DNA of 61,690 nt from a virus (Duplodnaviria; Caudoviricetes), in the IMG/VR virus record IMGVR_UViG_3300011430_000002, positions 1-61,690 of that record; one strand, written 5' to 3'. The translations under genes and the position numbers were made by a program. Positions within the stretch are counted from its first letter, which is position 1; the number at the start of each line of letters is the position of its first letter. This document shows, piece by piece, positions 23,258-59,669 of the stretch. The notes under the pieces were generated by a model that saw nothing but the letters and a program-made list of their open reading frames with translations, made no database searches and was not told the DNA's origin.

Positions 23258-24016
23258 ATGACATTTCTGGAGTTGGTGCAGCAACTCGGTAGCGAAACCG
23301 GCACCGAGTTGGTATCAAAAATCACGTCGGTGGAGGTACCACCGGCGGCTGCCTATGGCGAGACCACGGAACACCGGTCTCGCCTTGTTCGTTGGGCACA
23401 ACGGGCATGGCTGGACATTCAGCAAGACCAGACCCAGTGGGACTTCATGGTGAAGCGCACCATGATTCATCTGGCCAAGGGCCAGCTTGTCTACGACCTG
23501 AAATTCCTCACTGACAGCTACAACTCCGCTGCTGGGGTGGACTACCCTTACGAGGCGCTGGTACCGTTCGTTGCTTCCAACGATGTTCGCTATGTTTGGG
23601 TGGTGGATTCCAAGCAGGGTTTCCCGGTTACCCGGAATCTTTGCTATTACGTTCCGCCCGAGCGTTTCTATGGCTACCTTGACCGGTCCAGCGACCGCAA
23701 CAAGGGCATCCCCGGTCGCTACTCGCTGACCCGTGACGGCTGCCTTGAGTTTGATTCCGCGCCCCCGCACGACGAGCTGCGACTTGAGTACCAGTACCGA
23801 GCCATGCCGCAGAAGCTGCTGGTGGATGCTGATGTGCCGCGTGGCCTACCGGAGAAGTTCCACGACCTGATTATCTACCGGGCCATGGTGCACTATGCCG
23901 GCTTCGATGAGAGCGCAGCACAGCTGCAGCGGGCGGCCAAGTTGTACCGTGACCTGATGAACAAGCTACGCCTTGAGCAGTTGCGTGAATACTCCATGGC
24001 CGGGACGGGGACCTGA
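23258..24016 (+). CDS. Head-tail adaptor / tail tubular protein A-like
   Basis: MTFLELVQ start, W.....W.DIQ and LPEKFHDLIIYRAM motifs. Confidence 0.75.
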   Translation: MTFLELVQQLGSETGTELVSKITSVEVPPAAAYGETTEHRSRLVRWAQRAWLDIQQDQTQWDFMVKRTMIHLAKGQLVYDLKFLTDSYNSAAGVDYPYEALVPFVASNDVRYVWVVDSKQGFPVTRNLCYYVPPERFYGYLDRSSDRNKGIPGRYSLTRDGCLEFDSAPPHDELRLEYQYRAMPQKLLVDADVPRGLPEKFHDLIIYRAMVHYAGFDESAAQLQRAAKLYRDLMNKLRLEQLREYSMAGTGT

Positions 24017-29008: not shown

Positions 29009-29922
29009 GCTTCGTGAAAAAGGCCGTCAAGAAAGTGGTCGGCTTCGTCAAGAAATACTGGAAAGAGATTCTCATCGTTGCGGCGATTGTCTTCACCGCC
29101 GGCGTGGCGACTGTTGGTTTCTCCTACTTCGGTGCGGCTGCCGGCCAAGCTGGTTTCGGTGGCTTCATGTCGGCAGTGGGTAGCACCATGGTGCAGGGTG
29201 TGGCGGCCATCGGTAGCGCGGTGGGGATTGGTAGCGGGGCGGTTGTCGGCGGCGCGGGTCTTGGTGGTTCCACCGCGTTGGCTGGTACCAGCGTGGGCTT
29301 CGGCGCCGCTGCCGGTCTTGGGGGTGGCGCTGGTATTGGCGCGGGGTCGGCGGTAGCGGAAGCGAACTTGGCGGCTTTGGCGACTCCGACGGCCCCGGTT
29401 GCTGCGGGGTCAGGTCAGGCAGCGTTCAACTACGCAGCAGGTACCAAGATAGGCGCCACGGCGCAGGCAGTTCAGGCGGCTACACCCACGGTGTTGGCCA
29501 GCGGTGCGCTTCCGACAACCATTGCGACCACTGCTCCAGCTGCGACCAAGGGTTTGTCACTGGCTGGCGTGGGCAAGTTGTTGTCAGGCGTCGGCGCCGT
29601 AGCGGGTCCCGCCATGAAATACTATGGCGACAAGAAGGCAGCGGAGGCGGACTACCCACTGGCTTCGTGGGGCGTACCGGTGGGCCGGGGCGACGCGTTT
29701 TATGAGGACCCCGCCAACTACATGCCCGGAGCTGGTGCGGCTCCCCCCGTTATGCCGCCGCCGACCCAGCCCCCACTGGCTCCTGTTGGTACTGGGGCGT
29801 TGGCCCAACAGGCGGGTGGGGGTGTTGGTGTCCCGTCGGGGCAGCAACCTTTGATGTCGTTGATGCCATTCGGTCAGCCCATGGAGCCTGACCCCTTACT
29901 TGGAGGGCCTTCCTATGGCTGA
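29005..29922 (+). CDS. Gly/Ala-rich ejection (DNA transfer) protein with N-terminal TM segment
   Basis: Basic amphipathic N-terminus followed by a hydrophobic segment. Confidence 0.65.
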   Translation: MSFVKKAVKKVVGFVKKYWKEILIVAAIVFTAGVATVGFSYFGAAAGQAGFGGFMSAVGSTMVQGVAAIGSAVGIGSGAVVGGAGLGGSTALAGTSVGFGAAAGLGGGAGIGAGSAVAEANLAALATPTAPVAAGSGQAAFNYAAGTKIGATAQAVQAATPTVLASGALPTTIATTAPAATKGLSLAGVGKLLSGVGAVAGPAMKYYGDKKAAEADYPLASWGVPVGRGDAFYEDPANYMPGAGAAPPVMPPPTQPPLAPVGTGALAQQAGGGVGVPSGQQPLMSLMPFGQPMEPDPLLGGPSYG

Positions 29923-30613
29923 CGAAAAGCCACAAGCGAACCGGAATACCGGTGGTAATACCGGGCCGTTCTTTCCGGGTGAGGATGTCGATTCGATGTT
30001 CCTTAATCAACTCACTGCAGAAGCAGCGGAGTACATCCACGACACCGCGAAGGACGAAGTGCTGGAGGTGTTGAGCAACACCGACGACACGGCCGCGACC
30101 ATCGCTGCGACCACGTACAAGATTACCCGTGGCTTGCTTGAACGGCACAAGGATGTGGGCTTGTCACTGGAGGCGGACCTTTCCCACGCGTTGGCACTGG
30201 GGTCGGAAGTGACCGACATGTTGGTAGAGATTGTCGAGGTCACCCAACCCAACGCGGCGTTCGACCCGCAGCGGTTGCGCGAGGAATCCCTGTTGCGTGC
30301 GACCGTCATGCACGGTGAAGAAGTGGAAAAGCGCGACGACCCTGACGAGAAGGATGCGGCCCGCGTCATGTACACGATGATGATGCAGGACGGTACCGTT
30401 GAGCAGGGCATGAACTATGTCAACAAGCGGTCCAGCGAGATGGGCCTGAACACCAACGACATGCTGCGTCGTGGTGTGGAAGGGCACCGCAAGCAGCAAA
30501 ACCCCAAGAAAGACCCGCTGTCTGCTGCCGTTTCCAACGGCGTGCAAGGCATGGCTGAGCCGCCCCCGGCTGCGCCGCCGGCGGAAGAGCTGCCCTTGAT
30601 GGGAGGCATGTGA
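29915..30613 (+). CDS. Hypothetical virion-module protein
   Basis: GGAGG RBS; acidic and helical. Confidence 0.65.
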   Translation: MADEKPQANRNTGGNTGPFFPGEDVDSMFLNQLTAEAAEYIHDTAKDEVLEVLSNTDDTAATIAATTYKITRGLLERHKDVGLSLEADLSHALALGSEVTDMLVEIVEVTQPNAAFDPQRLREESLLRATVMHGEEVEKRDDPDEKDAARVMYTMMMQDGTVEQGMNYVNKRSSEMGLNTNDMLRRGVEGHRKQQNPKKDPLSAAVSNGVQGMAEPPPAAPPAEELPLMGGM

Positions 30614-30614
30614 C

Positions 30615-31562
30615 ATGAGTGACGACCGTTCTCGTAGGGAGAATAAGGGCGGTAATGCCGCCCTGATGGGTGCCGTTGGCGCCGGGTTGGAAGGGTTCTC
30701 CCAGTGGTATGACCGCGAGCGCCAGTTCCAAGCTCTGGAGTTGCGCCAGCGACGGCTGGAAGAATTGCAGAGGCAGGAACTTGCCCAAGGCGACCGGCGC
30801 TTGGACATCACCGAGGGGTTGGCCAACAAGGCTGCAGCCCGGGCTGATGCCATGAGCCTGACTGAGAAGAAAAACGCCTTCATTCAGGACGTGGACAGCT
30901 GGAAGTCGCAGTACATTGGCAAGGATGAGAAGTCCAAGCTACGAGCGGAAGCGTGGAAGCAAGCGTTCGATGAGGGCTTCCTGTTGCTGGATGACAAGGA
31001 TGCCAAGGTCATGGCTGACCGCATCGCAGGGTCCTTTGGTGGGGCTGGTACAGCGGGCGGGGCGCCGGTGATTTCCGCTGATGAGATGTTGGCAGGGTTG
31101 GACCAGCTACGAGCGCGGCGTTCGGCGCGTGGACTGAGCGTGGAAGACATGCCCGACGATGTAATCTCCGGCATGATTGGCGGGTACAGCCTGATGGGTG
31201 GCGCTGGCGGCGGGGCCGGCGGGCCGGGTATGCCCGACCCTGTAGTGGAAGACCCCGAGGTTGCTGCAGCAGCTGCAGCGGAAGAGGTTGCTGCAGGGGG
31301 GCCTATGTACCCTCGTATCAGTCGTGCCCTGTATGGGGTTGGAAACGAGGGGGAGCTACACAAGGATTTGTCCGCGCTGATGGGGCCTGTTGTGGACCCG
31401 GTTTTGAGTGGGGTGGATGCGGTGAAAAAGAAGTACAAGGAGGAAGGGTTGTTCGGTGTTTTTTCGCCTTCTTACCACGAGATACCGACCGACCCTCGTG
31501 ACAACGACCGCCTGAAGCTGCAGCCGTTCGATGCACCGTTCTCACTGTTCAAGACTCCGTGA
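30615..31562 (+). CDS. Putative ejection protein
   Basis: Gly-rich N-terminus plus coiled coil; precedes the giant gene. Confidence 0.6.
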   Translation: MSDDRSRRENKGGNAALMGAVGAGLEGFSQWYDRERQFQALELRQRRLEELQRQELAQGDRRLDITEGLANKAAARADAMSLTEKKNAFIQDVDSWKSQYIGKDEKSKLRAEAWKQAFDEGFLLLDDKDAKVMADRIAGSFGGAGTAGGAPVISADEMLAGLDQLRARRSARGLSVEDMPDDVISGMIGGYSLMGGAGGGAGGPGMPDPVVEDPEVAAAAAAEEVAAGGPMYPRISRALYGVGNEGELHKDLSALMGPVVDPVLSGVDAVKKKYKEEGLFGVFSPSYHEIPTDPRDNDRLKLQPFDAPFSLFKTP

Positions 31563-31572
31563 GGTAGTGTAA

Positions 31573-34500
31573 GTGGCCGACCCACTTTCCAACTATGGCT
31601 CGTATGCACTGCCCGATTTTTCGGACCTGTTGTTCAGTGCGGCCGAGGACACGGGCTTGGATACGGACCTGCTGGCCTCGGTCATGGAAGCCGAAAGCTC
31701 GTTCAATCCCCGAGCTGTTTCCAGTGCGGGTGCCCGTGGCCTCATGCAACTCATGCCGGATACGGCTGGCCAGCCGGGTTTCGGTGTGGAAAAGTTCGAC
31801 CCCGACTTGCCGCTGGATGACCCAACGGAAAATGTTCGCGTTGGTTCTCAGTACCTGAAGGGTCTGCTCAATGCGTTCAACGGTGACCTTGACGCCGCGT
31901 TGGTAGCCTACAACTGGGGTCCGGGTAAAGCCCAGAAGTGGGTGGCCAACGGCTCTGATTTTTCCAAGCTCCCCGCTGCAACGCGCAAGTACGTGAACGA
32001 CATCAAGGGCAAGGTCGCGGCGCGGAAGCAGGCGGCCGGTACCACCCCCGCCGGTGCTTCCACCTACCAGCCCTTGGACCCGTGGGCGGATGTTTCTGCA
32101 ACGGGTGCCGTGGATACGGCGCCCGTGTCAGGGTCAGTCGCCGTGGACCAGCGTAGGGCTGACATTGCTGAGCGGCGTGCGGCCTTCAACGAGCGTTTGC
32201 AGCGGGACCCGGAAGCGGCCCGGCTGAATCTGCCCACGGAAGAAGGCGACGAAGAGGAACCCATTGGCGCCGGCCAGTGGCTCAAGGACCAAGGCGAGTG
32301 GGCGGCCAAGGCGTTGTACTCCAGCGTGGTGGACCTCGGGTCTTTGCTGGCTGACCTCGCTGACTTCGGGATGGGACCCGACAGCGGCCTTACCGACCGG
32401 GTGTCAGCGAAGCTGGAGAACCACGCCAACCGGGTTCGCCAGTCCCTGCCCGATTACATCCGCAAGGACTTGGCCAACGAACTCATCACCACGGATGCAA
32501 ACGGCGAGCTGGACTTCCACATGCCGAATTTGCGGCAGGTGGCCAACCTCGTGTTTGAGTCCGCCGCTCCGTCCGGGGCAATTGTTGGTGGTGGCAAGGC
32601 GCTGCTCAAGGGCGCGATGACCATCAACAAGCTGAAGAAGGTCATCAAGGCGTCACCCGGCGTGTCCAACGCCCTTGCCTTGGGCACCGCCAACAGCGCC
32701 TATGTCACGGCCGACACCTACACCACGGTGTACGACGACGTGAAGGAACAGGCCCAGCGCGAGGGCAAGTCGCTCAAGCAAGCCAGCGACGAAGCGGCGC
32801 GTGCGGCGTCATTGGCGGCCGGAATTATTGCCCCCTTGTCGTTCGCCACCGGCGCGGCTGGCGAGGGGTTGGCAGCGACCGGGGCCACCGTCTACCGTAG
32901 GCTGGCCAAGGGCTTGGCCTATGGCTCCATCACTGAAGCGCCCGAGGAATCCGGCCAGTACGTGGCCGAGGAACTGGGACGCGGCAAGTCGCTGGCGGAA
33001 ATCGACAAGGGCAAAGCCTTGGAAGCGGGTCTGCTTGGTGCCCTTGGCGCCGGCCCGACTGAAGGCGTGCTGGCTGCGCTGTCTGGCGACACGGGTGCGC
33101 CGGCTCCGGTGGATGATGTTCCACGTGAAACACCATCCGGCCGCATGGAACAGTTGGAACTGTTCCCGAATCTCCCTATCGACCAGTTGCCAACGCTGCC
33201 CGGTGAGCCGCCCGCTGGCCCGCCCCCCGGCGCACCGCCCTTCAATCTGGAAGGTCCCAGCACCATGGAGCAGCTGGAGCTGCCCCTGATGCCGCTGGAC
33301 CTGCAGGGTCCGCAGGGTCCGCAGGGTCCGCAAGGTCCGCCGGAACAACTGGAGCTGCCCTTCCCGACCCCGCCGAATCCAGCCATCGCCGCCGGCGTTG
33401 CCGACATGGAACAGGCGTTGGATGCGGACCCCAACTTGCCCAACGCAGCGGACGCGCTGAACGCGCCGTCCCCGGAACAGTTGGGTATGTTCGCTCGTGC
33501 CCGGGCGAAGTTGGATATAGAGCGGCGGGACGATGAGGATGAAGTAGGCGCCACGCCAGAATTTCTGGAGTTGGGTGAGCAGGACGAGGACCAGTTGTGG
33601 GAAGACCAGCAGGCGCTGATGAAGAACAGCGCCTTTGAGGCGGGCCTGTCCATCGTGCCCAAGGAAACGCTGGCTTCGCTTCCCAACGTGTCGGTACGGG
33701 ACGCGGAGGAAATCGACCGTAGGTTGCGGCCGACCATGCCCGACCCCGAGTTGCGCTCGTTGGTGGTTGAGCAGCAGCTGGAGGTGCTCTCGGAATATCG
33801 CGGCGAGTTCCCCAACGCGACCCTTGACGAAGCGTTGGGAGCGCCCCGCGCCACTGGCTCCTTGTCGGAAACGGAGGTTGAGCCTGAGTTTGAAATTCTG
33901 ACCGACCAGTTCGGTGAGCAGGAAGAACCCCCGCAGCCCCTTGAAGTGGGGGAACTGGCCCCAGTTGTTGACCTTGTGCAAGCTCGGGCACGGGCGCAGG
34001 CGGGGGAATCGCGTAGTGAGGAAGTTGGCTCTACACCCAGCCCGGATACGGGCACGCCTACTGAAAAAGTCCATGACGAGCAGCAGGCAAGAGAAGACTA
34101 CATGCGGGTTCGGGCGCGTTTGAATCCTGATTCCCTGCATGTCCTTGATAACCTGACTGCGAACGAAGTTCTGGCTATGGTGCAGAGGGAATGGGCTACG
34201 CAGGGTCAGTCTGGTAATCCGCGTAATCCCGCTGCTGTCTATCGGGCTGTCGCCGCACGGTTAAACGCTGCCGCTGCACGGGTAAACAAGGCCGCCACGG
34301 CGAAGCCGGCCGAGAAGCCGGCGAAATGGGACCCGCTCACGGATGACGGGTTCGCGCAGGAGATTATCGACGACGAGGGCGGGGCGGGGATGCGCCTGCT
34401 CAACGCTGGTTACACGGAAGAGCAAGCCGACGAGGTAATCACCAAGGTGATGTCGCGCTTTGTCGGTCGTAGGCTGCAGGAAGCCCGTGAGGATGGTACC

Positions 34501-37500
34501 CGGTCACGGATGCGCAACCTGCGCCAGCCGGATGAAGGCCAGCAACGGCTGCAAGTGACCCGCGAGCAGCCGGCCCGCAACGACTTCGAAGCGCGGTTGG
34601 AACAGTTCGCGGATGAGACAGGTACGCCGGCTGACCCAGCGGCAGTTGCCGAGGCGGTGCAGGAACCCGACGGCCCCAAGGTGCAAAGGGGCGACGTGCT
34701 GGACTTGGTGCACGGCACCGCCGAGGACTTCAACCTGCACCAGTTCCCCGCTGGCAACCGGGGGTCAGGGTTGTGGTTCACTGCCAACGAGACTTCAGGG
34801 ACCCGCTATGCTCAGCAGGGCGCCGGCCCCCGCCCGCGTCGCATCGTCGCCCGGGTCGTGCCCAAAAACCCGCTGACCCTTGCGTGGCAGGACGAGTGGT
34901 TTGGCAATATGGCCGAGTACGAGCGGGTGGTGTGGGAGGCTCGTGAGGCGGGGTATGACCTGATTGCCTTTGTCGGCGTGCAGGAAAGTTTCGGCCCCGA
35001 TGAGGGTGGTGCTCCCGGCCGTAGGTCCACTGAATCCCCGAGGCAGGGCATCCCGGGGGTGAACAACTATTACGTAGTGCTGGACCGTACCATCCTCTCG
35101 CACCGCCCCGGTGCCAACACGTTGGCATTGGCGCCAGAGCCAGAAACTGCCCCGGATGCGGGACCCGCGCCGGCACAGGCTGAGCTGGATTTGCAGGGTG
35201 GTGCGGGTGCTGCGCCTACCGCACGTACGGCACCGCCCATGCGCACACGCGGGCAGGCCGCCGCCGAAGCTGCCGCCCCACCTGCCCCGGCTCCCGCTCC
35301 GGCGCCAGAGCCTGCTCCCACAGCCCCCGTCACGCCCCCGGAGGACCTCAAGGGGCAGCTGCAGGCGGCCCGGGATAGGTACGCCGCTCGTCGGGCGCAG
35401 GTTGCCGCTGCAGCCGCTGCCAATGCGCCCGCCCCTGTCCCCGTTGGCACCAGTACGCCAGCCAGACCCGCCCGTGCGCACGTCTACTACCCGCGTAGGC
35501 GCCTGCAGCGGGCGATGAACGCGAGGTTCTCGGATAATAGGCAGGACCGGGCGTTCCGCGCCGGTATCACGCCGGAAGAGTTGGAGCGTAGGTATCGTGC
35601 GGTGGCTCGCGACGTGATGGCAGCGCCGCGTTTCAACACGCTCACCGAGACGCAGCAGATTCGCGAAATCATCGACCAGACGGTGCGTACCTTTGACAGT
35701 GGCGCCACGACCCGAGCGGCTCCCGCGCCGGCGCCTACACCGGCACCCACTTCCGTGCCCGCCACGCCCGCGTCTACCGGCTCCGCGCCGGAACAGCAGT
35801 TCACGCAAACTGTGCACAGCACGATTCGCGATTTTACGTTGGGGCCGTCTTATGCGTCGGACTTTGTTTCCGGCTTGGTGGCAGCGGGGCGTACGCTGGA
35901 GGAAGCTGCAGCGGAACTGGGTTTGCCACCCCCCACAGGTACTGACCCTAATGATTTTTGGGGCGGTACGCTAGGCCCAGTAAACGTCACCCGTGTGGCT
36001 GCTGACCAGACAACCACGGCACCGGGCGTTGCGGGGCGGGTGAACCAGACTTCCTACTACATCATCACGTTCTCCAACGGGGCCAAGGTAGCCCGCATCG
36101 GTGGTACCGGTAGCATGAATCAGGCGCTGCCGCGTAACCAAGGACTGGGTAAGCAGCAATACGCAAACTTGCTCACGCACCTATTTGAAAATGAAGGCGT
36201 GAGCATCCTGCTGTCGGATTCCACCAACCTTCCGGGGTCGGCACAGTTGTACGCGGCTTTGAAAGTGGCCGGGTGGGATGTGGTCGCCAACCCATCCAGC
36301 TATGAAGTTCAGCCCGGCCACCCTACCACCACGGTTTACCCGCGCTTGGGTAACTGGAACTTCGCCGTGGTCAGCGGGCCACCCGTGCAGCCCCAGCTGC
36401 TCACCTCGCGAGCCTATGGGGCTACCCGTGGCTCGCCGCTGGCTGTGGTGCGCGGGACGGCCGCTGTACCCACGTGGCCGGGCAAGACTCCTGAAGCGGC
36501 AGAAACCGCTGACACCGGGCCGCCCACGGACCCGACGCAGCTGGAGCTGTTTCCCGGTAGCACGCCACCGCCGGCGCATGCAGTGGCGGCGCCCGAGGCT
36601 ACAGGTGCCCAGAGGACTGACCCGACGCAACGGTCATTGTTTCCCCTAGATACCCCGCAGCCGGTGACGACCGAGGAGATGGATGAGGCGCAGAAGTCTG
36701 ACGCCACCGCTGCCGACGCGACGTTAAGGGGCGCCCCCGCTCCCGCCCAGACGGTAACGAATACTTCACCCGATGCGGTGGACCCTGACTCGCAGGAGAA
36801 ACTGGCCGAGGCGGAAGATAATCTCACCGGTGCCAACGATGGCGGTGAGGGTGGTGATGGCGGGGATGGTGGTGGCCGTGGCCCGGATGACGCCAGCGAG
36901 TCCAGCGACATGCCCGGTGACCGCGAGGTCTCTGAGTACCAGACCAATCAGGCCCTCAATGATGTCATCGACGCCCACTCAGGTCGGTGGTCAGATGTCT
37001 GGCACTACTGGTTTGCCGGCTCCACCAAGGCGCGTGGCTACCATCGCGGCCAGCGGGCTACCCCCGAACAATCCACGGCGCGTGGCGACGTGCTTGCACG
37101 TAGAGCCTTCCGTGAAGAACTGACGGCGTGGAAGAATCGCCGGCGCCTTGCGGAGAAGAACGCCCGGGCGCAGGGGCAGCAAGACTTCCAGTTCACTGAA
37201 CCCCGGCCCTTACTGCCCAGCCAGCGCCGCGAAGCCAACGACGCCGGTGAGTTCAACTGGGATGAGTTCCGCACCTTGGTCAAGCGTGCACTGGGGCGCA
37301 CCAAGGTCCGGTGGATGGAGCGTTTGGTGGACCAGCACTACTCCATCAAGCTGATTCAGGAAGTGCTGGCCGACGAGAACGGCTTCGTGAATTCACCGGT
37401 GGACCTGTACGAGTCACTCACTCGCATCGGTTCCAAGATTGACGTGCGGGTGAAGAAGTTCCAAGGCAAACAACAACGTGCCATTCAGGACGTTGCCAAC

Positions 37501-40275
37501 ACGATGGGAGCGACCTTTCAGGAAGTAAACGACTTCGCCGCCGCCCTGCACTCACTGCAGCGCAACGGCTACATGTTCCGCCGCAACTTGGAACAGGGGC
37601 TGGTGCCGCACGCCTATGACCCGGACCCGGACAACGACGTGGTGGGATATTCCGGCATGTCCAACAAGCAGGCCCACGACCTGCTGACCAAGATGGAAGA
37701 GCAGTACGGCCGGGAGAATCTGGCCGCTCTTGAAGATGCCATCTTCGACGCTGCCCAGTTCGTTCGCGCCGAGTTGGTAGCCGGCGGCCTCATTGGCGAG
37801 ACGCAGCAAGGCAACTGGCACCCGCACCCCAACGGCGACACGTACATCCACGACCGCTACAAGGAGTTGCGGGATTCGCAGGGCTACAAGGCGGCGATGG
37901 ACCCAACCAACTATGACATGGCGCGGATTCCGGCCAAGGATGTACCGGGCGTTGACTACACCGAGGACGAGGCCAAGAACGCCACGTTGATGGACACGCT
38001 GCACAACATCACCTATGTGCCGTTGTCCGACATTCGCACCCCCGGCGTGGTTGAGACCATCCGCCAGCAGCTGATGGCCAAGGCTGGCGCCAGCTTCTAC
38101 TCCGAGTACGACGTGTGGGGCGACGACATTGGCAAGGCGTATGGCCGGCAGACCTCTGGTCCCGCCTTGTCGGCAGTGACGCACCTGCTGCAGCACGGCC
38201 AGCAGGCCATCATCCGTGGCGTGCACAACACCGAGCAGGGCGCTCGCATCCGTGCCTTGGTCGCTGAGCTGGACGACCCGTACTTCGCTGTCACCTTGCC
38301 GACAATGAAGGAGGGCTACTACAACATCCCGGGGAACATCAAACGGCAGCTGAACTTGCACTTCACCAACCGTGGCCTGCCACCGCCGGCGCTGCCCACC
38401 ATGGACATCGACCTGCTGACCTTCCGTCACAAGCAGGGCGACAACTCGACACCCACCGTCATTCTCGACTTGGGCATGGCCAACGCGCTGACCAACAGCT
38501 TCTCCGGTGCCAACGTGAAGCGAGTGTTCAACGCCTTTGGCAACTCGTCGTCATGGGTGCGCAAGTCCATGACTGCGTGGTCGCCGCCGTTCTGGGCGAC
38601 CAACTATGTCCGCGAGGTGTGGAACGCAAAGATTCAGGCGCGGGGCATCAAAGGGCTGACCGATGAACAGCGTGCGGCGGTTGCTGCCAAGGCGGGTTTC
38701 GGCGAATCCTTCAAGTGGGTGAAGACCATCTTCCAGCAGATGAAGGACCCGAACTTCGACCCCAGTACATTAACGGACCCCGAGGAACGCACTCGTGCCG
38801 AGGTGTTCAAGAAGATGCACGAGGCCGGCATGACTTCGGAGTTCTTTCACATCAAGGACATCACCGAGCTGGAGCGTGACCTGACCCGCATTGAGCGGGA
38901 GCTGAACCGGCCGGGCAAGAACACCATGGCCAAGACCCGCGAGCTGTTCCGCTCGCTGGCGCAGAACCTTGAGTTGATTGCCAACGTGTCGGAAAACGCG
39001 GTGCGCATGTCGGTGGCTGCCGAGGTGTTGGCCCAGACCGGCAACGTGGAGTTCGCTGCCAGTGTGGGCAAGGACTTGTCCGTCAACTTCCAGCGGTACG
39101 GTACGTGGGGGTCGGCCATCAACAGCCTGTTCTTCTTCTACAACCCCACCATTCAGGGGCTGTACCGTGCCAAGCGTGCACTGCATCACAAGGATGTAAG
39201 ACGCATCGTGGTTGGCGCCACGGTGTTTGGCGCCATGATGCCCATCATCAACCGGATGATTGCCGGCGAGGACGATGACGGCCGGAACTACTACGAGGCG
39301 GTGCCGCACTGGAAGCGCAACACCAACTTCATCCTGATGATTCCCGGCGGCGAGGGGCGGCACATCTCCATCCCCCTGCCGTACGTGTGGAACCTGCCGT
39401 ACGCCCTGTCCGAGAAGCTGGTGGATTCGCTCACTGCTTCTGACCAGCTCAGTGGCGCCGAGAAGGCAAGGAGTATTGCCGGCCAGATGGTTGGGCTGAC
39501 CATAGAGAACATCTCGCCGTTGTCGTTCTCTTCCAAGCACCCGGTGCGGTCGGTCGTTCCCACCATGTTGCAACCGGGGTACGACGTGCTGACCAACCAG
39601 ACGTGGTTTGGTGGCTACATCAACCCGGCCAAGAATCAGTTCGCCGCAGCGCCAGTGACCGATGCCTTCAACGTCAAGGACCCGGACACCAAGCAGAACT
39701 GGCAGGCGCTGTCGCAAGCCATGGCCATTGGCGGCAGCAAGTACGAGGAAGGGCTGATTGACGTGTCACCGGGCACACTGGAATACCTGTTCGGGTATTA
39801 CACCGGTGGCGTCGGTACCTTCATGACGCGAACCTTCGACACCGTTGCCGCCGTGGCGACACCGGGCGACGGGAAAACTTTCGAGGATGTGGTGGCCAAC
39901 GCGCCCATCCTGCAGCGGGTCTATGGGCTGGGCAAGTTTGAAGAGGCTGACCGCGACCGCTACTACCAGCTGCGCACCGACATGGAGTCCGTGCTGAACG
40001 TGGAGAAGGATTTACGAGCAGCCCGTGACATCGCTGGCATGAAGATTTTCAGGGCCAACGAAGGGGACCTGTATTCAACCGGCGTCATCAGCCGGTACAA
40101 GAACACGGAGCGCATGGTGGACAACCTGCGCCGTGCCCGCAACAAGTTGGTGAAGCAGGCCAACAAGTCGGAAGCGACCAAGCGCCGCATTGAGCAGCTT
40201 GATGACCGGATGACCAAGTTGATGACGCGGTTCAACCGGTACTACTATGAACGCATCACCAAGGAGAGTTTCTAA
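31573..40275 (+). CDS. 2900-aa polyvalent internal virion protein: SLT lytic transglycosylase, ART-like, GNAT-like and LPD38-like domains
   Basis: ESSFNPRAVS.AGARGLMQLMP and AYNWG (SLT); HGT...GLWFT...KNPL...GYD (ART-like); RNQGLGK...LSDS (GNAT-like); YEAVPHWKR...ISIPLP (LPD38-like). Confidence 0.85.
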   Translation: MADPLSNYGSYALPDFSDLLFSAAEDTGLDTDLLASVMEAESSFNPRAVSSAGARGLMQLMPDTAGQPGFGVEKFDPDLPLDDPTENVRVGSQYLKGLLNAFNGDLDAALVAYNWGPGKAQKWVANGSDFSKLPAATRKYVNDIKGKVAARKQAAGTTPAGASTYQPLDPWADVSATGAVDTAPVSGSVAVDQRRADIAERRAAFNERLQRDPEAARLNLPTEEGDEEEPIGAGQWLKDQGEWAAKALYSSVVDLGSLLADLADFGMGPDSGLTDRVSAKLENHANRVRQSLPDYIRKDLANELITTDANGELDFHMPNLRQVANLVFESAAPSGAIVGGGKALLKGAMTINKLKKVIKASPGVSNALALGTANSAYVTADTYTTVYDDVKEQAQREGKSLKQASDEAARAASLAAGIIAPLSFATGAAGEGLAATGATVYRRLAKGLAYGSITEAPEESGQYVAEELGRGKSLAEIDKGKALEAGLLGALGAGPTEGVLAALSGDTGAPAPVDDVPRETPSGRMEQLELFPNLPIDQLPTLPGEPPAGPPPGAPPFNLEGPSTMEQLELPLMPLDLQGPQGPQGPQGPPEQLELPFPTPPNPAIAAGVADMEQALDADPNLPNAADALNAPSPEQLGMFARARAKLDIERRDDEDEVGATPEFLELGEQDEDQLWEDQQALMKNSAFEAGLSIVPKETLASLPNVSVRDAEEIDRRLRPTMPDPELRSLVVEQQLEVLSEYRGEFPNATLDEALGAPRATGSLSETEVEPEFEILTDQFGEQEEPPQPLEVGELAPVVDLVQARARAQAGESRSEEVGSTPSPDTGTPTEKVHDEQQAREDYMRVRARLNPDSLHVLDNLTANEVLAMVQREWATQGQSGNPRNPAAVYRAVAARLNAAAARVNKAATAKPAEKPAKWDPLTDDGFAQEIIDDEGGAGMRLLNAGYTEEQADEVITKVMSRFVGRRLQEAREDGTRSRMRNLRQPDEGQQRLQVTREQPARNDFEARLEQFADETGTPADPAAVAEAVQEPDGPKVQRGDVLDLVHGTAEDFNLHQFPAGNRGSGLWFTANETSGTRYAQQGAGPRPRRIVARVVPKNPLTLAWQDEWFGNMAEYERVVWEAREAGYDLIAFVGVQESFGPDEGGAPGRRSTESPRQGIPGVNNYYVVLDRTILSHRPGANTLALAPEPETAPDAGPAPAQAELDLQGGAGAAPTARTAPPMRTRGQAAAEAAAPPAPAPAPAPEPAPTAPVTPPEDLKGQLQAARDRYAARRAQVAAAAAANAPAPVPVGTSTPARPARAHVYYPRRRLQRAMNARFSDNRQDRAFRAGITPEELERRYRAVARDVMAAPRFNTLTETQQIREIIDQTVRTFDSGATTRAAPAPAPTPAPTSVPATPASTGSAPEQQFTQTVHSTIRDFTLGPSYASDFVSGLVAAGRTLEEAAAELGLPPPTGTDPNDFWGGTLGPVNVTRVAADQTTTAPGVAGRVNQTSYYIITFSNGAKVARIGGTGSMNQALPRNQGLGKQQYANLLTHLFENEGVSILLSDSTNLPGSAQLYAALKVAGWDVVANPSSYEVQPGHPTTTVYPRLGNWNFAVVSGPPVQPQLLTSRAYGATRGSPLAVVRGTAAVPTWPGKTPEAAETADTGPPTDPTQLELFPGSTPPPAHAVAAPEATGAQRTDPTQRSLFPLDTPQPVTTEEMDEAQKSDATAADATLRGAPAPAQTVTNTSPDAVDPDSQEKLAEAEDNLTGANDGGEGGDGGDGGGRGPDDASESSDMPGDREVSEYQTNQALNDVIDAHSGRWSDVWHYWFAGSTKARGYHRGQRATPEQSTARGDVLARRAFREELTAWKNRRRLAEKNARAQGQQDFQFTEPRPLLPSQRREANDAGEFNWDEFRTLVKRALGRTKVRWMERLVDQHYSIKLIQEVLADENGFVNSPVDLYESLTRIGSKIDVRVKKFQGKQQRAIQDVANTMGATFQEVNDFAAALHSLQRNGYMFRRNLEQGLVPHAYDPDPDNDVVGYSGMSNKQAHDLLTKMEEQYGRENLAALEDAIFDAAQFVRAELVAGGLIGETQQGNWHPHPNGDTYIHDRYKELRDSQGYKAAMDPTNYDMARIPAKDVPGVDYTEDEAKNATLMDTLHNITYVPLSDIRTPGVVETIRQQLMAKAGASFYSEYDVWGDDIGKAYGRQTSGPALSAVTHLLQHGQQAIIRGVHNTEQGARIRALVAELDDPYFAVTLPTMKEGYYNIPGNIKRQLNLHFTNRGLPPPALPTMDIDLLTFRHKQGDNSTPTVILDLGMANALTNSFSGANVKRVFNAFGNSSSWVRKSMTAWSPPFWATNYVREVWNAKIQARGIKGLTDEQRAAVAAKAGFGESFKWVKTIFQQMKDPNFDPSTLTDPEERTRAEVFKKMHEAGMTSEFFHIKDITELERDLTRIERELNRPGKNTMAKTRELFRSLAQNLELIANVSENAVRMSVAAEVLAQTGNVEFAASVGKDLSVNFQRYGTWGSAINSLFFFYNPTIQGLYRAKRALHHKDVRRIVVGATVFGAMMPIINRMIAGEDDDGRNYYEAVPHWKRNTNFILMIPGGEGRHISIPLPYVWNLPYALSEKLVDSLTASDQLSGAEKARSIAGQMVGLTIENISPLSFSSKHPVRSVVPTMLQPGYDVLTNQTWFGGYINPAKNQFAAAPVTDAFNVKDPDTKQNWQALSQAMAIGGSKYEEGLIDVSPGTLEYLFGYYTGGVGTFMTRTFDTVAAVATPGDGKTFEDVVANAPILQRVYGLGKFEEADRDRYYQLRTDMESVLNVEKDLRAARDIAGMKIFRANEGDLYSTGVISRYKNTERMVDNLRRARNKLVKQANKSEATKRRIEQLDDRMTKLMTRFNRYYYERITKESF

Positions 40276-41062: not shown

Positions 41063-44000
41063 TCAGGGAAGGATTGGTGGGAAAAGGATTTCCACCGCCC
41101 TGACTGCGTTCCCTGCCTTCAAGCGGGTAGTGGTGATTCGGTAGCGGGACCCATCTTCCATGCGGCTGGGCCGGGCGGGGTCGATGCCAATGACTTTGGC
41201 CCCGCTGTGCACCAGTGACCCGTACAGCTCTTCCCACACCGTGGCTGACAACTTGTCGCTACCCTGTATCAACTCTCGTAGCCGGCTCAGTGGTATCTGC
41301 ACCGCCCGTTCTACCCTCAACAGGACGTTGTTCTCGTCGTAGACTTCCGTGGCCACGATGCGCCACTGGGCGGTGTTGACCATGCGGTTGGTTATTTGGT
41401 TGAACAGGTTGGTGCTGCCACCTTTCTCCAGCCACTGGCGATGTTGCCCTCGCACCCCGTCTGCATGAACATGGTTCCAATCAGGCCATGCGAACTTAGG
41501 TCCCAGCGTGACTGAGAACTCGGACAGGTTGATGTTGATGCGCCCGTTGTCGTCGTTGGTCAGCAGGTCCCACAAGCTGTCCATGTCGTCGGCTTGCACC
41601 GTGTCGGTAAGGCTCTGCTGCTCACACGCCAGCTTCAACCCGGCGCGGATGATTTCCTTCAGGTTCCAATCGACCAGCTTCAAGTCGTTACAGATGGCGG
41701 CCGTTACCGCCACGGCGGCAAGGTAGCGGCACCAGAACCGATACGGCCCCACGATTTCCCCCTGCAGGCGCCGCTTCAGGGCGGTCTCAAACTGCCCTTC
41801 GCGAGCGGCCAGCATCTCGGTGACCAAATCGCGGTTGGCTACCACGTACTTGGAGAACATGTGCAGCGCGTGTCCGTTGTTCCCGCGCACCAAGGTGGCT
41901 GCGTTGCGCCAGCGTTGGGTGTCCACCCCTTCAATCATGGCGTACTGGGCGGGTATCTCCAGCTGCCGGGTCTGTGCCGCTTCCAGTTGTAACCGGTTGC
42001 CCCCTTTCCTTCCCGCCATGAAGGCAGCGGAGGTGGAGAAGTTGGAGGTCAGCATCAGGCTGGCGTTGATGTTGGCCGAGTCAGACGGTGACCACGACCC
42101 CGTGGAGTCCTGCTCCAATCGTAGCCGTGGCTTGCCCGAGGTGACGGTGCTGAGGATGGCGGATAAATTCTCCGCGCTCAGCGACGTGACATCATCCACC
42201 GGCAGCATGAACACGCCGGCCTGCTTGAGCATGTCCAGCATCACCTTGTCGGTACTTGACCCTTGCACAATCCCTTCCTGCGGGTCGCCAATGAAGCTGT
42301 TCATGAACTCCATCAACGAAGTCTTGCCACGTCCAATGGGGCCGGTCAGTGCCAGCAAAATTCCGCCGCGCATACCCGGCATCAGGGGCAGCAGCATGTT
42401 GGACATGCCTGACAGCAGAACCATTTGCGCATAGGGGTGGTCGCCGTCGAACACGGAGATGGCGTGCTTCCACTTGGCCAGTGTTCCAACCGGTCGCCCG
42501 GAACAGAATTTCTCAATGGTCTTGGGGCTGCCGCCGGAGTGCTCAGCGTACGTGTTGCCGTTCACTATCGACCCGTTGTTATTGAAGCGGGTTGCTCCCA
42601 CCGTGAGGCCAGTGGGTGTCCAACCCTTGGTTGCATAGTGCGGCGTGGGCCGGTGGCTGGCGACATTCACGATGTCGGCCAGAAACTTTCTCACCGCCGT
42701 CATTTCCTTCGGCGTTGAGATGTCGAACAGCATGCCGATTTGGCGCAAGGGTTCAGTCGCCCGGTCCAATGTTGTGGCTGTCAACCGGTTGGCAGCGATG
42801 GCCACGTCAGTGCTGGACTGCCACACCCGTACGTTCAGGTGAATCATCAGGTCTACACGCTTGTCCTCACCTTCCGCGTCGGTCTCCAGAGCGACGCTGG
42901 CGCCGATGACGTTGATGTGCCCCCGTATCAGCGGCCGCATCACCTCGCCTTCTTCCTCACCCACCCACACTGGTATCAAGGTGAACGGCTGGTGGGTGTC
43001 GGCGTTGCGCGTCTGGCGGTAGAACACTGGCAGTGGCAGGTAGCCTTGCGGCGTGGTCTGCCCCTGCTGCAGCTTCTCCACCGCCTCAACCTTCTGCAGC
43101 TCCCGGGTTTCCTGTTGCTGAACCTTCTCGGCAATCTGGCTGGGCGTCCACACCTTGTCCCTGAATCTGCATCCCTCGCAGTTCTTCGGGTTGATGGCGC
43201 GGAACTCGTCGCACCCGGCGCTTGGCGAGTTGAAGGTACTGCGCAGGTGCCTTACCTTGTTGATGGTAGCGACGCGTGAGTAGCTGGGGTGGCCGTTGCT
43301 GAAGGCGTGCACCAGCTCGTCGTTCTTGTCGCAGGTGTCCAGCACCCGCAACATCAGTACCCACTCCGGTTCCGACACGTTGCCGTGCAGCGTCATCATG
43401 CGGTGCATCTGCTTGCACCCCTTCACGATGGGCACCGGGTTCAGGCCGGCGAAGCGAGCTGTCGTTTCATGGAACCCAACGCTCAGTGACGACGCGGTGC
43501 CGATGGCGTGCGCGGGCGGCGGGCTGTTGATTAACGGCGTGGAGTCAGGGACCACGCTGGATACCCACACGTTGCGAGCGGCGGCGGCTTGAGCCAGCCC
43601 GGTCTTGAGGGTGTCGAAGTCTACGTCGGTACCATGCCCCATTATCTTCACGTACTCACGGGTCGCCGTCTTGGCGTTCCACGTGCAGGGCACACGCATC
43701 ACCCGTGCTGCATCCTTGGTTGGCACCGGGTCGGCCAGCAAGCGTGGGTCCACGTGCTCAACCACCTTGGCAAACGTGTTGGCAACTACGAACCAGTCAT
43801 CAATGGAGACGGGTTGGGTGAAGGTGAAGTAGGCGTGGATGCCGTTGCCCGAGTCCACAATCGTTGGCTTGGGCAGGCAGGGGATTTCCTTGTACAAGTT
43901 GTGCAGTCCCATCACTGCATCAGCCTTGCTGTTGTAGTGCGGCCGGTCACCCTTGAGGTCGATGTCCAGCAGCAGGCACTTGATGAGTTGGGCGTTCTGC

Positions 44001-44248
44001 TTGCTACGCTCACGTGCCCGGTATGCGGCGACACCAAAATAAATGTTGGTGTCCATGTGCGTGTTGAGTTCGGTTACATGTTCAAGCAGTGAGCCGTTGG
44101 CTATCTGCTCGTCGGTAAAGAACTGTTGGGTCCACACTTTCGTGGTCCTGCCTTTGGCTGGCACTGACCGCTCGTGGGCTATACACAGAAGGGCGCTGTT
44201 TGGTACTATCGCCCTCAGAAACTGGGTTGAAAAACTCTCTTTCTTCAT
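41063..44248 (-). CDS. Primase-helicase (RepB/AEP-like primase plus DUF927-type helicase)
   Basis: LLDID, SGNGIHAY, RVMRVP (primase); C...C..C cluster; GPIGRGKT Walker A and VDD. Confidence 0.85.
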   Translation of the reverse strand: MKKESFSTQFLRAIVPNSALLCIAHERSVPAKGRTTKVWTQQFFTDEQIANGSLLEHVTELNTHMDTNIYFGVAAYRARERSKQNAQLIKCLLLDIDLKGDRPHYNSKADAVMGLHNLYKEIPCLPKPTIVDSGNGIHAYFTFTQPVSIDDWFVVANTFAKVVEHVDPRLLADPVPTKDAARVMRVPCTWNAKTATREYVKIMGHGTDVDFDTLKTGLAQAAAARNVWVSSVVPDSTPLINSPPPAHAIGTASSLSVGFHETTARFAGLNPVPIVKGCKQMHRMMTLHGNVSEPEWVLMLRVLDTCDKNDELVHAFSNGHPSYSRVATINKVRHLRSTFNSPSAGCDEFRAINPKNCEGCRFRDKVWTPSQIAEKVQQQETRELQKVEAVEKLQQGQTTPQGYLPLPVFYRQTRNADTHQPFTLIPVWVGEEEGEVMRPLIRGHINVIGASVALETDAEGEDKRVDLMIHLNVRVWQSSTDVAIAANRLTATTLDRATEPLRQIGMLFDISTPKEMTAVRKFLADIVNVASHRPTPHYATKGWTPTGLTVGATRFNNNGSIVNGNTYAEHSGGSPKTIEKFCSGRPVGTLAKWKHAISVFDGDHPYAQMVLLSGMSNMLLPLMPGMRGGILLALTGPIGRGKTSLMEFMNSFIGDPQEGIVQGSSTDKVMLDMLKQAGVFMLPVDDVTSLSAENLSAILSTVTSGKPRLRLEQDSTGSWSPSDSANINASLMLTSNFSTSAAFMAGRKGGNRLQLEAAQTRQLEIPAQYAMIEGVDTQRWRNAATLVRGNNGHALHMFSKYVVANRDLVTEMLAAREGQFETALKRRLQGEIVGPYRFWCRYLAAVAVTAAICNDLKLVDWNLKEIIRAGLKLACEQQSLTDTVQADDMDSLWDLLTNDDNGRININLSEFSVTLGPKFAWPDWNHVHADGVRGQHRQWLEKGGSTNLFNQITNRMVNTAQWRIVATEVYDENNVLLRVERAVQIPLSRLRELIQGSDKLSATVWEELYGSLVHSGAKVIGIDPARPSRMEDGSRYRITTTRLKAGNAVRAVEILFPPILP

Positions 44249-45793: not shown

Positions 45794-47401
45794 TCAGACT
45801 CCTAACGTCTCTTCGTACAGTTTCAGGATGCCAGCTTGCTGGCGTTCTCGGTCCCTCAGTATCCCGTAAGCACCCCATTCCAGCTTGTTGGCGCCAAGGT
45901 GGATGATGGACATTTTGTGCGTCTGTCCCGGTCTGGCCATCCGTTCGTTGGCTTGGGTGTACTGCTCGGTACTGAAGATTGGGTTGAACCAAATGATAGT
46001 ATCAGCACATGTCAGGTTCAGTCCATGGCTGGCGGTCTTCGGCTGGGCAACAAGGACCTTGGGGTCATCGTTGTCCATGAAGGCGGTGAGGATTGTGTCA
46101 CGTGCCTTGCCTGTCACGTCACCGCTAATGACGGCGTTGGTTATCCCCTGCTTGGTAAGGTACTCGGACACCCGGTCCAGTGCCCGGCGGAAGGACACAA
46201 ACACAATGACCTTGCGGTCGCTCTGGTTGATGCACTCTTCAAGCACATTCAAGCGGTCGGGCATGGAGATGTTGGCGAACTTGCCATACTCCCCGTACAC
46301 GCTGCCGCAGCAGATTTGCAGCAGCTTGCTCATCTTCACGGCGGCATTGACGGCGCTCACTACCACCCCGTTGCCAAGCTCATCGAAGGTCTCGGCCTTC
46401 AGTGACCGTTCCATTTCAAAGTAGGAACGCGCCTGCTCACCGGACAGCTGCACCTCCCGGTCCATGTAGGTGACCGATGGCAGCTGGATGCAATCCTCTT
46501 TCTTGAACCGCACGGCCGGCTGCAAGTACGTGCGTACCACCGCCTGCGCGTTGGCCCTCGGGCGCCACTTGAACGAGCTGACCTTCACTTCCACCATGTC
46601 TTTAAAGCGGGTGAAGGACAGGGGCATCCCCTGCGGGTTGGTCTCCGCGTTGAACGGGTTGACCAGCCGGCCCATTGACCAGCAGTCGGACGGTGCGTTG
46701 GGCGTGGGCGTACCGGTGAGCAGCCACAAGCGAGGGGCGATGCGCTGCACCAGTTCCTTCAACTGCCTGAACCTACGAGAGCGTGGGTCCTTGATGGCTG
46801 TCGCCTCGTCGTAGACGATGAGGTCGATGTCGCCCCTTGCTGCCAACGCGTCGGCCACGATGTGCAGCCCATCGTGGTTGACCATGAAGATGTCCACGTC
46901 CAGTTCCTTCACCATCTGCAGGCGCTTGGCGCGTGGTCCGTGGAGGATGCCCACCGTGCGGCTCGGCGTCACGTTGAATACTTCCCGCTCCCACGTGACC
47001 CGCATGGTGGAGAGTGGGCACACGACCAACACCTTGCGCACCAACCCTTCCTGCTTGAGATGGTCCATGGCCCACAGGGCAGAGGCAGTCTTGCCTGTCC
47101 CCATGTCGTTAAGGCACAGGTTGCGGTAGTTGAGGGTGAGGAACTCGGCGGTCACGCGCTGGTGGTCGAAGGGTTTGTAGCGACCCGGCCAGCTGTAGCG
47201 GGTGGCGATGGTGCTGGGCACAGTCAAACCCATCCTACGAGTGGCTGCCACCGTGTCGGAAGTGTGCGGCGCCGCCAGCATCAGCTGCCCGTTGGTCTCA
47301 ATGACCTTGCTCGCCTTCACGTTGCGAAGGAAGCGGGCCACGTCCGACGTGTCGGGAAACAACATCACCGGCCGGTGCGGGTGGAGTACAACATTGGTCA
47401 T
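45794..47401 (-). CDS. SNF2-family DNA helicase
   Basis: DMGTGKT, YDEA, LTGTP, HGLNL and QANERMARPGQ motifs. Confidence 0.93.
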   Translation of the reverse strand: MTNVVLHPHRPVMLFPDTSDVARFLRNVKASKVIETNGQLMLAAPHTSDTVAATRRMGLTVPSTIATRYSWPGRYKPFDHQRVTAEFLTLNYRNLCLNDMGTGKTASALWAMDHLKQEGLVRKVLVVCPLSTMRVTWEREVFNVTPSRTVGILHGPRAKRLQMVKELDVDIFMVNHDGLHIVADALAARGDIDLIVYDEATAIKDPRSRRFRQLKELVQRIAPRLWLLTGTPTPNAPSDCWSMGRLVNPFNAETNPQGMPLSFTRFKDMVEVKVSSFKWRPRANAQAVVRTYLQPAVRFKKEDCIQLPSVTYMDREVQLSGEQARSYFEMERSLKAETFDELGNGVVVSAVNAAVKMSKLLQICCGSVYGEYGKFANISMPDRLNVLEECINQSDRKVIVFVSFRRALDRVSEYLTKQGITNAVISGDVTGKARDTILTAFMDNDDPKVLVAQPKTASHGLNLTCADTIIWFNPIFSTEQYTQANERMARPGQTHKMSIIHLGANKLEWGAYGILRDRERQQAGILKLYEETLGV

Positions 47402-51496: not shown

Positions 51497-51739
51497 TTAC
51501 TGTGGAATGTTCAGCGGCAGCTCAAGCTGGGCTGGGTCGATGGTGCGTCCTACCTCTGGCGCTTCGTCGTCAGCCTTGGGCAACGCTGCCAACAAGCCGG
51601 CAGGAATCCTGATTGCCTTCATCTGCTGGCCGGTGGCGGTGCGGGTCACGTCGAAAACGTACAGGCCACCTCGGTCCACGAACCTGAACTTCAAGGTCAG
51701 GTCCATCTGGTGGGTCTTACTCGGTCCTCGCATACTCAT
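51497..51739 (-). CDS. Small protein with C-terminal QLELPL motif
   Basis: 80 aa; GGAGG RBS. Confidence 0.65.
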   Translation of the reverse strand: MSMRGPSKTHQMDLTLKFRFVDRGGLYVFDVTRTATGQQMKAIRIPAGLLAALPKADDEAPEVGRTIDPAQLELPLNIPQ

Positions 51740-52431: not shown

Positions 52432-52826
52432 CGCTTGGCCTTGGGCTTGATGACTTGCGGCTTGTTACCCTTGGGCTTGATGTACTGCAGCTTGTGGGTG
52501 GACAGGTAGTGCTCACCATCCGGTGTCAACATGTGGCGAATCACCACCTCGCTTTCCAGTTCCACCCGTTCAAGGTAACCACGGTCTCGTAGTCGCTTCA
52601 GCACGTGGTACAGGTAGTCGCGGGTCTTGGCCTCACCGGTCACGTTCCAGATGTAGACCAGCAGTTCATCGACAGTCGCTGGCCCACAGTGGTCGCAGTA
52701 CACCAGCGCCAGTGAGTGGGCAGTGGGTGCCCTCTTGTCGCGAGGCTTGGTCATCTCTGCCAACAGGTCTGCAGGCAGGGTTTCATTTACAGTCGGCATA
52801 CGTTGCTCCAGCATGGGCTTCTCCAA
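52428..52826 (-). CDS. Winged-helix DNA-binding protein
   Basis: GPATVDEL...LYHVLKRLRDRGYLER. Confidence 0.65.
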   Translation of the reverse strand: MEKPMLEQRMPTVNETLPADLLAEMTKPRDKRAPTAHSLALVYCDHCGPATVDELLVYIWNVTGEAKTRDYLYHVLKRLRDRGYLERVELESEVVIRHMLTPDGEHYLSTHKLQYIKPKGNKPQVIKPKAKR

Positions 52827-59603: not shown

Positions 59604-59669
59604 TTCCTCGGTCAGTTGCGCCCGCCCCATGGCGGGCGCTTGGTCGGTGGTGGTCAGGTGGAACGTGCT

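Follow-up and report, generated by a model that had tools for sequence, protein, structure and literature searches.

The giant ORF and its motif array

The virus record IMGVR_UViG_3300011430_000002 (Duplodnaviria; Caudoviricetes) comprises a complete phage genome, which measures 61,690 bp and has direct terminal repeats and a G+C content of about 60%, and the whole of this stretch constitutes the window analysed here. The last and largest gene of its structural arm is a giant open reading frame (ORF) of 2900 amino acids (aa) (P0001, 31573-40275, plus strand), the product of which carries an array of penta- and hexapeptides matching the published consensus for binding to the bacterial β sliding clamp, DnaN. 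Peptides of the same type are present in two small proteins encoded on the minus strand, P0034 (80 aa) and a 118-aa early-arm protein. An earlier sequence-only reading of the window had listed nine motif instances, all of which were confirmed, seven in the giant ORF and two in the small ORFs.

The giant protein starts with an SLT lytic transglycosylase domain (aa 20-129, 31630-31959; PF01464, E 3e-27, 95 bits against a cut-off of 21.3), followed by a family-specific N-terminal domain (aa 225-520, 32245-33132) with 37-67% identity to eight homologues. The latter includes segments that are rich in Gly and Ala and mildly hydrophobic; their hydropathy reaches maxima of 1.53 at aa 411 and 1.28 at aa 485, under the usual transmembrane threshold, which leaves aa 400-505 marginal. 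The C-terminal module (aa 1700-2900, 36670-40272) is conserved at 48-61% identity in the homologues P0002-P0004 and in the giant protein of a second phage, G001, and includes the LPD38 domain (aa 2572-2763, 39286-39861; PF18857, 105.7 bits, above cut-off). At 23-25% identity this module is also related to giant proteins from 336 cultured-phage records, among which are 10 of Burkholderia phages and 31 of Ralstonia phages. In the closest homologues the conserved parts are aa 1 to about 770 (44-46% identity) and aa 1700-2900 approximately, while the middle is variable. An acidic stretch after the second motif pair contains a Gly/Asp-rich 9-nucleotide repeat (GDGG-type, about 4 copies, 36838-36874, plus strand).

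Two segments of the variable middle had been named ART and GNAT domains in the sequence-only reading. The first of these (aa 1025-1190, 34645-35142) weakly resembles an ART-PolyVal domain, since its Atlas language-model features gave a score of 0.94 with 188 shared features and 28 of 30 matches belonging to the ART-PolyVal family; the Pfam profile (PF18760) reached 14.8 bits against a cut-off of 31.2 (E 0.051, aa 1040-1085 only), below the threshold of family membership. The second (aa 1485-1645, 36025-36507) gave Atlas scores of 0.88-0.91, its matches being mostly unnamed viral clusters, two of which include Acetyltransf_1 in 13% and 48% of their members. No Pfam match to a GNAT profile was detected here at E <= 0.1, and the GNAT assignment is retained as a lead only.

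Four motifs are located within linker 1 (aa 505-650, 33085-33522, plus strand; Pro 21.9%). These are motif 1, QLELF (aa 527-531, 33151-33165), motif 2, QLELPL of the Hda type (aa 567-572, 33271-33288), motif 3, QLELPF (aa 592-597, 33346-33363), and the doubtful motif 4, QLGMF (aa 636-640, 33478-33492). A weak form, QAELDL (aa 1202-1207, 35176-35193), lies in an Ala/Pro-rich linker after the ART-like segment. In a further linker (21% Pro), ahead of the C-terminal module, motif 5, QLELF (aa 1656-1660, 36538-36552), stands within TDPTQLELFP, and 30 residues further downstream motif 6, QRSLF (aa 1686-1690, 36628-36642), stands within TDPTQRSLFP, the TDPTQ prefix being common to both. All are encoded on the plus strand. 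The three linkers contain 21-22% Pro against 7.4% for the whole protein, as their earlier description as Pro-rich implied, and few hydrophobic residues. Judging from this composition and from the gappy alignment of homologues, they may be disordered.

The sequence QL[SD]LF is a clamp-binding consensus (PMC9690074, PMC12867686), and the canonical motif of Hda is QLSLPL (residues 6-11), in which Leu7, Leu9, Pro10 and Leu11 sit in the clamp cleft (PMC5397184). As claimed in the sequence-only reading, this published consensus is matched by peptides of the window. In the giant protein these are the two copies of QLELF together with QLELPL and QLELPF; P0034 contributes a further QLELPL, and the 118-aa protein contributes QLPLF. 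The pattern QLxLP[LF], as in Hda, is found at aa 567 and 592.

For statistical evaluation the strict pattern was set a priori as QL.LF or QL.L.[LF]. The giant protein contains five strict matches against 0.125 expected, a count that was reached in none of 5000 shuffles. The fifth of these, QLNLHF at aa 2259, is discounted because it sits inside the conserved folded C-terminal module. When linker 505-650 was shuffled alone, three strict matches stood against 0.023 expected (0 of 20000 shuffles), and for linker 1640-1700 one strict match stood against 0.001 expected (19 of 20000 shuffles). As a natural background we used 80 unrelated SLT proteins (27,009 aa), taken for this purpose only from generic SLT loci of a metagenome scan, and these included no strict match. 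The other 62 ORFs of the phage (16,254 aa) contained four strict matches, two of which are those of the two small proteins.

We consider it very unlikely that the peptides are functionless remnants of local duplication in a fast-evolving linker rich in Leu, Gln, Glu and Pro, resembling clamp motifs by chance. The copies are indeed near neighbours with short flanks in common (MEQLEL, PEQLEL, TDPTQ), as expected of duplicates, motifs 2 and 3 are separated by a (GPQ)4 repeat, and two relatives are entirely motif-less. The within-linker shuffles given above, however, argue against such an origin, as do the recurrence of the motif in an unrelated small protein and its presence at orthologous positions in G001, the linker of which is otherwise unalignable. 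Furthermore, the motif codons differ synonymously between copies (CAG TTG GAA CTG TTC and CAG CTG GAG CTG TTT), and Tandem Repeats Finder detected no DNA repeat across the motifs. A repeat at the DNA level was ruled out on these two grounds; the synonymous differences indicate that the repeat is kept at the protein level.

The (GPQ)4 tripeptide repeat itself (33303-33340, plus strand) consists of 4.2 copies of a 9-nucleotide unit. In run X20 the contigs showed loose ends at both of its borders, which may represent either cross-matching of repeats from other organisms or length variation. An antisense GQLQLF at 33357 (minus frame), opposite motif 3, was examined as a further candidate and rejected as a codon artefact and not a gene, the sequence CAGCTGGAGCTG being nearly palindromic. 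Among four runs compared over nucleotides 33000-36700, 15 sites were variable, of which one falls within a motif codon (33481 T>C, motif 4) and is synonymous.

Conservation in the SLT-headed family and in small proteins

Alignment-based scans of IMG/VR yielded G001 and three partial loci, where an earlier scan with aa 1-800 had yielded none. As assembled here, the SLT-headed family comprises ten members, namely the giant protein, P0002-P0004, P0036-P0039, P0106 and the giant protein of G001; two loci, L088 (ending before the linker) and L089 (a broken ORF), were left out before any count. Neither megablast of the giant gene nor tblastn of the N-terminal family domain gave a match among the cultured phages, and a cluster look-up of the giant protein returned no entry. 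For the N-terminal domain, therefore, that collection offers no cultivated model.

The second phage, G001, is likewise complete (55,720 bp); it is syntenic with the first and 83% identical in its capsid protein. In the same linker its giant protein carries QLNLF (512), QLRLDL (545), QLNLF (569) and QLELDL (604), the first and last of which align with motifs 1 and 3, while the remaining linker is barely alignable. At the position of motif 1, P0106 has QLDLGL, and it carries QLQLGL in addition. Motif 3 aligns with QQILPL in P0002 and QMELPL in P0004 as well as with QLELDL in G001, and in each case the motif directly precedes a conserved PNPAIAAG block. QMELPL is also present in P0039, and P0037 carries QRELPL, QRLLPL and QRKLPL. 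P0036 has QPDMF (aa 920) and QPSMF (aa 952), 32 residues apart in a polar stretch (aa 929 and 961 in the ORF of L087). The Pro at the second position of the latter two peptides is as in the C-terminal QPDLF of MuC (PMC12867686). P0003 and P0038 carry no motif.

The nine homologues taken without the discovery protein (20,875 aa) contain six strict matches against 0.57 expected, and under a relaxed pattern 24 matches against 10.06 expected, neither count being reached in 1000 shuffles. The enrichment over shuffled sequence thus holds for the giant protein and for its homologues. In six of the nine homologues a motif is located about 35-135 residues past the N-terminal domain. The motif is kept in orthologues, both in the giant protein of G001 and in the orthologue of P0034, while the surroundings vary; conserved flanks around lost motifs would have spoken against a binding role, and the opposite was observed, since the motifs recur while the flanks change. 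Two of the instances in the sequence-only reading are present in the sequence yet doubtful as clamp motifs. In the region of QLGMF the homologues keep GMF and the following helix but not the Q, and for this reason QLGMF looks structural, while QAELDL has no counterpart in any relative.

The 80-aa protein P0034 is encoded at 51497-51739 (minus strand), between a PD-(D/E)XK nuclease gene and a phrog_4776 gene, two genes downstream of the family A DNA polymerase (PolA) gene. Its QLELPL (51512-51529) lies 10 residues from the C-terminus (...DPAQLELPLNIPQ). The diverged orthologue in G001, likewise beside a PD-(D/E)XK nuclease and sharing with P0034 a small N-terminal core, carries QLELDL at its end (...APEQLELDLQGGGR). 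AlphaFold2 prediction for P0034 with this single orthologue gave a mean predicted local distance difference test score (pLDDT) of 46.5, which is unusable. The 118-aa protein (1487-1843, minus strand) carries QQLPLFP (1775-1789) about 18 residues from its N-terminus; its gene overlaps a neighbour by four bases at each end and is called as a gene on 45 contigs, and no orthologue was found in G001. Apart from the G001 orthologue of P0034, homologue searches with the two small proteins returned only themselves. The motifs claimed for these two early-arm proteins are thus both present, but only P0034 has an orthologue that keeps its motif. The family A polymerase of the phage has no terminal motif, its sole match being an internal QRVLF in the exonuclease domain, as would suit a phage with no need of the host clamp for its own purposes.

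The distribution of the motif also bears on whether the selected partner is something other than the clamp, such as a phage protein (for head incorporation or ejectosome assembly, or as the hub of replication), a processing protease or some other protein of the host. The core most widely kept in the family is [E/x]LP[L/V], at times lacking the Q, as in TEDLPL of P0002 and TEELPV of P0003, and many copies have a DPxQ prefix that is outside the published clamp consensus. Polyvalent proteins have been proposed to be cut into units (PMC5512222), and the phage encodes a putative metallopeptidase (DUF2201_N; 57978-59630). A partner of this kind is nevertheless improbable in our estimation. The same motif stands at the end of a replication-arm protein in two phages, and a signal for head packaging or cleavage is not expected in such a protein. 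With the thresholds used, neither the structural arm nor the giant protein itself yielded a prohead protease or MPTase domain. In addition, the strict forms are exact matches to the clamp consensus, and in a structural model they dock in the clamp pockets.

The host clamp as candidate partner

None of the three Pfam domains of DnaN was detected in the window, and in G001, where the DnaN C-terminal domain (PF02768) was the only DnaN domain searched for, it was not found. Since the phage is without a clamp of its own, any clamp target should be that of the host.

Docking was modelled for aa 558-606 of the giant protein, a fragment picked for its hexapeptides, which are less textbook but conserved in the family, together with DnaN of Pseudomonas aeruginosa in two copies as a substitute for the clamp of the host. 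The docking score was 0.69 in three of three runs, while the best of three controls scored 0.02; this docking mark is reached by 51 of 78 solved complexes and by 2 of 108 mismatched pairs. Contacts agreed between runs by at least 70%, with a pLDDT of 60-61 for the partner. In the model, QLELPL (contacts at 564-573) is placed in the pocket of protomer 1 and QLELPF (589-600) in that of protomer 2, both being canonical client pockets, and the contacts on DnaN are, for both protomers, residues 172-177, 243-248, 321, 345-347 and 361-367. The tightest modelled pairs are DnaN 363-365 with Q592 and L593, resembling the backbone contact between Gln6 and Met362 reported for Hda (PMC5397184). The peptides thus look like clamp ligands to the model, which supports, without demonstrating it, the DnaN binding proposed in the sequence-only reading.

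Clients of the clamp are well known from cells, where the same penta- and hexapeptide patterns occur in flexible linkers or at termini; here they lie near termini or in linkers that may be flexible. The present case is different in that up to six or seven copies are present on one polypeptide, in that the carrier is a virion-type protein unrelated to polymerases, Hda or repair enzymes, and in that binding is predicted. Among phage proteins the closest parallel is MuC of phage Mu, which binds the host clamp via two motifs, QHDLF and QPDLF, the family consensus being Qx[D/E][L/M]F (PMC12867686). MuC and Mor, like the proteins described here, are phage proteins with near-consensus motifs for the host clamp, and overproduction of MuC disturbs the replication control of the host (PMC12867686). 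MuC, however, is a DNA-binding activator of 16.5 kDa that is produced in the course of infection and employs the clamp for late transcription (PMC12867686). The giant protein, in contrast, is a 2900-aa product of the structural arm with enzyme domains, presumably present from the onset of infection, and has no sequence relationship to MuC. Gp168 of phage Twort also inhibits the host sliding clamp, but it occupies the DNA sliding channel instead of the client pocket (PMC8565349). Gp168 is a small early protein and not one of the virion, and it has no motif array. SocB of Caulobacter binds the clamp cleft via the usual motif and thereby blocks elongation (PMC9690074), but it belongs to a toxin-antitoxin system encoded on the chromosome, has one motif and is not delivered by a phage.

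SocB is the model for a reading in which binding to DnaN is real but serves blockade, the linkers and small proteins plugging the clamp pockets and stopping host replication, regulatory inactivation of DnaA (RIDA) and repair. In the structural model, motif pairs 25-44 residues apart occupy both pockets of the dimer. SocB halts elongation through the usual clamp motif (PMC9690074), and overexpression of MuC is lethal through its clamp motifs (PMC12867686). With its own polymerase and without a clamp of its own, the phage would pay no cost for such a blockade, and P0034 and the 118-aa protein could be produced in quantity. Internal virion proteins are present in few copies, while cells hold hundreds of clamps. 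Few virion copies of the giant protein, with four to six tags each, cannot titrate such a number, and sequestration of DnaN in the whole cell by a low-copy virion protein is ranked lower for this reason and held to be unlikely. The points raised below against tethering to the clamp apply equally to blockade, which is in our view quite unlikely as the main purpose of the motifs.

Gene context and proposed role

In the structural arm, all on the plus strand, are located the genes for the large terminase (15999-17483), a portal-like protein (17480-20044), the major capsid protein (21358-22422) and an SU10-type adaptor (23258-24016), and two smaller ORFs (29900-30613 and 30615-31562) lie just ahead of the giant ORF at the end of the arm. 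The replication arm, on the minus strand, includes PolA (52783-54720), the PD-(D/E)XK nuclease (51736-52431), an SNF2-type helicase (45794-47401) and a primase-polymerase-like protein of 1061 aa (41063-44248), which has a weak PHROG link (phrog_2478, E 4.4e-6), belongs to no Pfam family and is 51% identical to its counterpart in G001. The capsid protein is about 35% identical to those of Pseudoalteromonas, Stenotrophomonas and Xanthomonas phages, the nearest cultured phages, themselves distant, and the polymerase is about 30% identical to those of Pseudomonas KPP25-like and Rhizobium phages. The phage was found nearly unchanged across 20 runs from freshwater sediment, sediment and groundwater. 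A capsid-based scan of bacterial genomes detected no prophage and hence gave no clue to the host.

Several other genes of the window were annotated in passing. The 550-aa early-arm protein encoded at 57978-59630 (minus strand) contains, in addition to the putative metallopeptidase domain (DUF2201_N), a VWA-like domain (DUF2201), and the PHROGs label of its family, 'HNH endonuclease', looks like a misnomer. This peptidase could bear on the processing of polyvalent proteins. The adjoining 373-aa ORF (59670-60791, minus strand) is without family. A 236-aa protein (780-1490, minus strand) matches Nmad5 (nucleotide modification associated domain 5; E 1.6e-10), and the phage may on this ground modify its DNA. 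Two probable fibre or receptor-binding proteins are encoded upstream of the terminase gene, one of 617 aa with a DUF285 repeat domain (7878-9731, plus strand) and one of 637 aa with collagen triple-helix repeats (11751-13664, plus strand).

In phages with a gp16-type protein as in T7, the N-terminal lytic transglycosylase is carried on the largest internal protein, encoded last in the structural block. The giant protein has this layout, with SLT at aa 20-129 and its gene after the two smaller ORFs, a likeness in layout. SLT and LPD38 above their cut-offs, together with the ART-PolyVal-like segment, are combined in a single product of the late structural arm. The survey of Iyer et al. 2017 places LPD38 among the polyvalent domains confined to phages (PMC5512222), and the combination of many domains in one giant polypeptide with a late-gene location is shared with the polyvalent and DarB-like proteins (PMC5512222). 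For one of the latter, the 4515-aa gp69 of JC1, presence in purified virions was detected by mass spectrometry with 51 unique peptides (PMC9144972). The giant protein is probably a polyvalent internal virion protein that is packaged and ejected; packaging and ejection are reasonable to infer because the gene closes the structural arm, the SLT domain is present, the C-terminal module has distant relatives in cultured phages and the class of JC1 gp69 is virion-borne.

We propose, with about even confidence, that QLELF, QLELPL and QLELPF are functional motifs serving as host-clamp address tags on an ejected multi-enzyme protein. The tags would dock in the protein-binding cleft of the host β sliding clamp. 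The conserved SLT domain with the family-specific N-terminal part on one side, and the LPD38 C-terminal module on the other, would frame a variable enzyme cassette, here ART-like and possibly GNAT-like. After ejection, once exposed to the cytoplasm, the tags at both junctions of the cassette would tether it to DNA-loaded host clamps and thereby locate it at replication forks and on freshly replicated DNA. Since neighbouring tags are 25-44 residues apart, two of them could fill both pockets of one ring, and such paired tags may locally exclude Pol III, Hda and repair clients. P0034, with the same tag at its end, would continue clamp docking once the phage genes are expressed. Occupying host clamps should cost the phage nothing because its own family A polymerase replicates it. 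A more extended scenario, in which the ejected protein seizes loaded clamps with its tag pairs before any phage expression, stalls replication and repair, and brings its ADP-ribosyltransferase-like module, perhaps along with an acetyltransferase-like one, to where the clamp or replisome proteins bound to it could be modified, appears unlikely. The multivalent clamp-binding scaffold suggested in the sequence-only reading is in this way partly supported.

Several observations weigh against the proposal of address tags. Two of the nine homologues (P0003 and P0038) are motif-less, several others carry only relaxed forms such as QRELPL and QQILPL, ELPL or ELPV without the Q occupies the position of motif 2 in P0002 and P0003, and the second cluster (aa 1656 and 1686) is conserved in no relative. 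Among 29 other polyvalent proteins there was no enrichment (one strict match against 3.1 expected, 56 relaxed matches against 50), and a single loose match was present in each of the giant proteins of an E. coli Traversvirus and of Xanthomonas phage DES1; the tag array thus characterises the SLT-headed subfamily and not polyvalent proteins generally. The 15 variable sites in 3.7 kb represent too little variation for a test of selection. Packaging, ejection and access of the linkers to the cytoplasm are inferred steps, and the N-terminal SLT domain must work in the periplasm, with hydropathy peaks in the next segment that are marginal for a membrane passage. Because complexes of Hda with the clamp and similar ones have been solved, the docking result may be memory, reflecting likeness rather than binding. 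The docked DnaN, moreover, is a stand-in, and the binding is modelled.

Clamp motifs in cellular clients, and MuC and Mor as phage clients of the host clamp, are already known. Our literature search found no paper linking clamp-binding motifs with virion, ejection or polyvalent proteins, and the main text of the survey by Iyer et al. 2017 mentions neither 'clamp' nor 'DnaN' (PMC5512222). What is new is the array of clamp-type tags on a giant virion-type polyvalent protein, together with a matching protein of the replication arm, in phages without a clamp of their own.

If the proposal is true, a clamp tag would be a simple answer to the still open question of how the many enzyme domains of giant injected phage proteins get to their targets at the very start of infection. 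Replicating DNA is marked by the sliding clamp, which serves the enzymes of replication and repair as their docking hub; an injected protein bound there would reach, or block, machinery that a lytic phage must neutralise. The natural peptide variants described here would also enlarge the set of sequences fitting the pocket of a validated antibacterial target.

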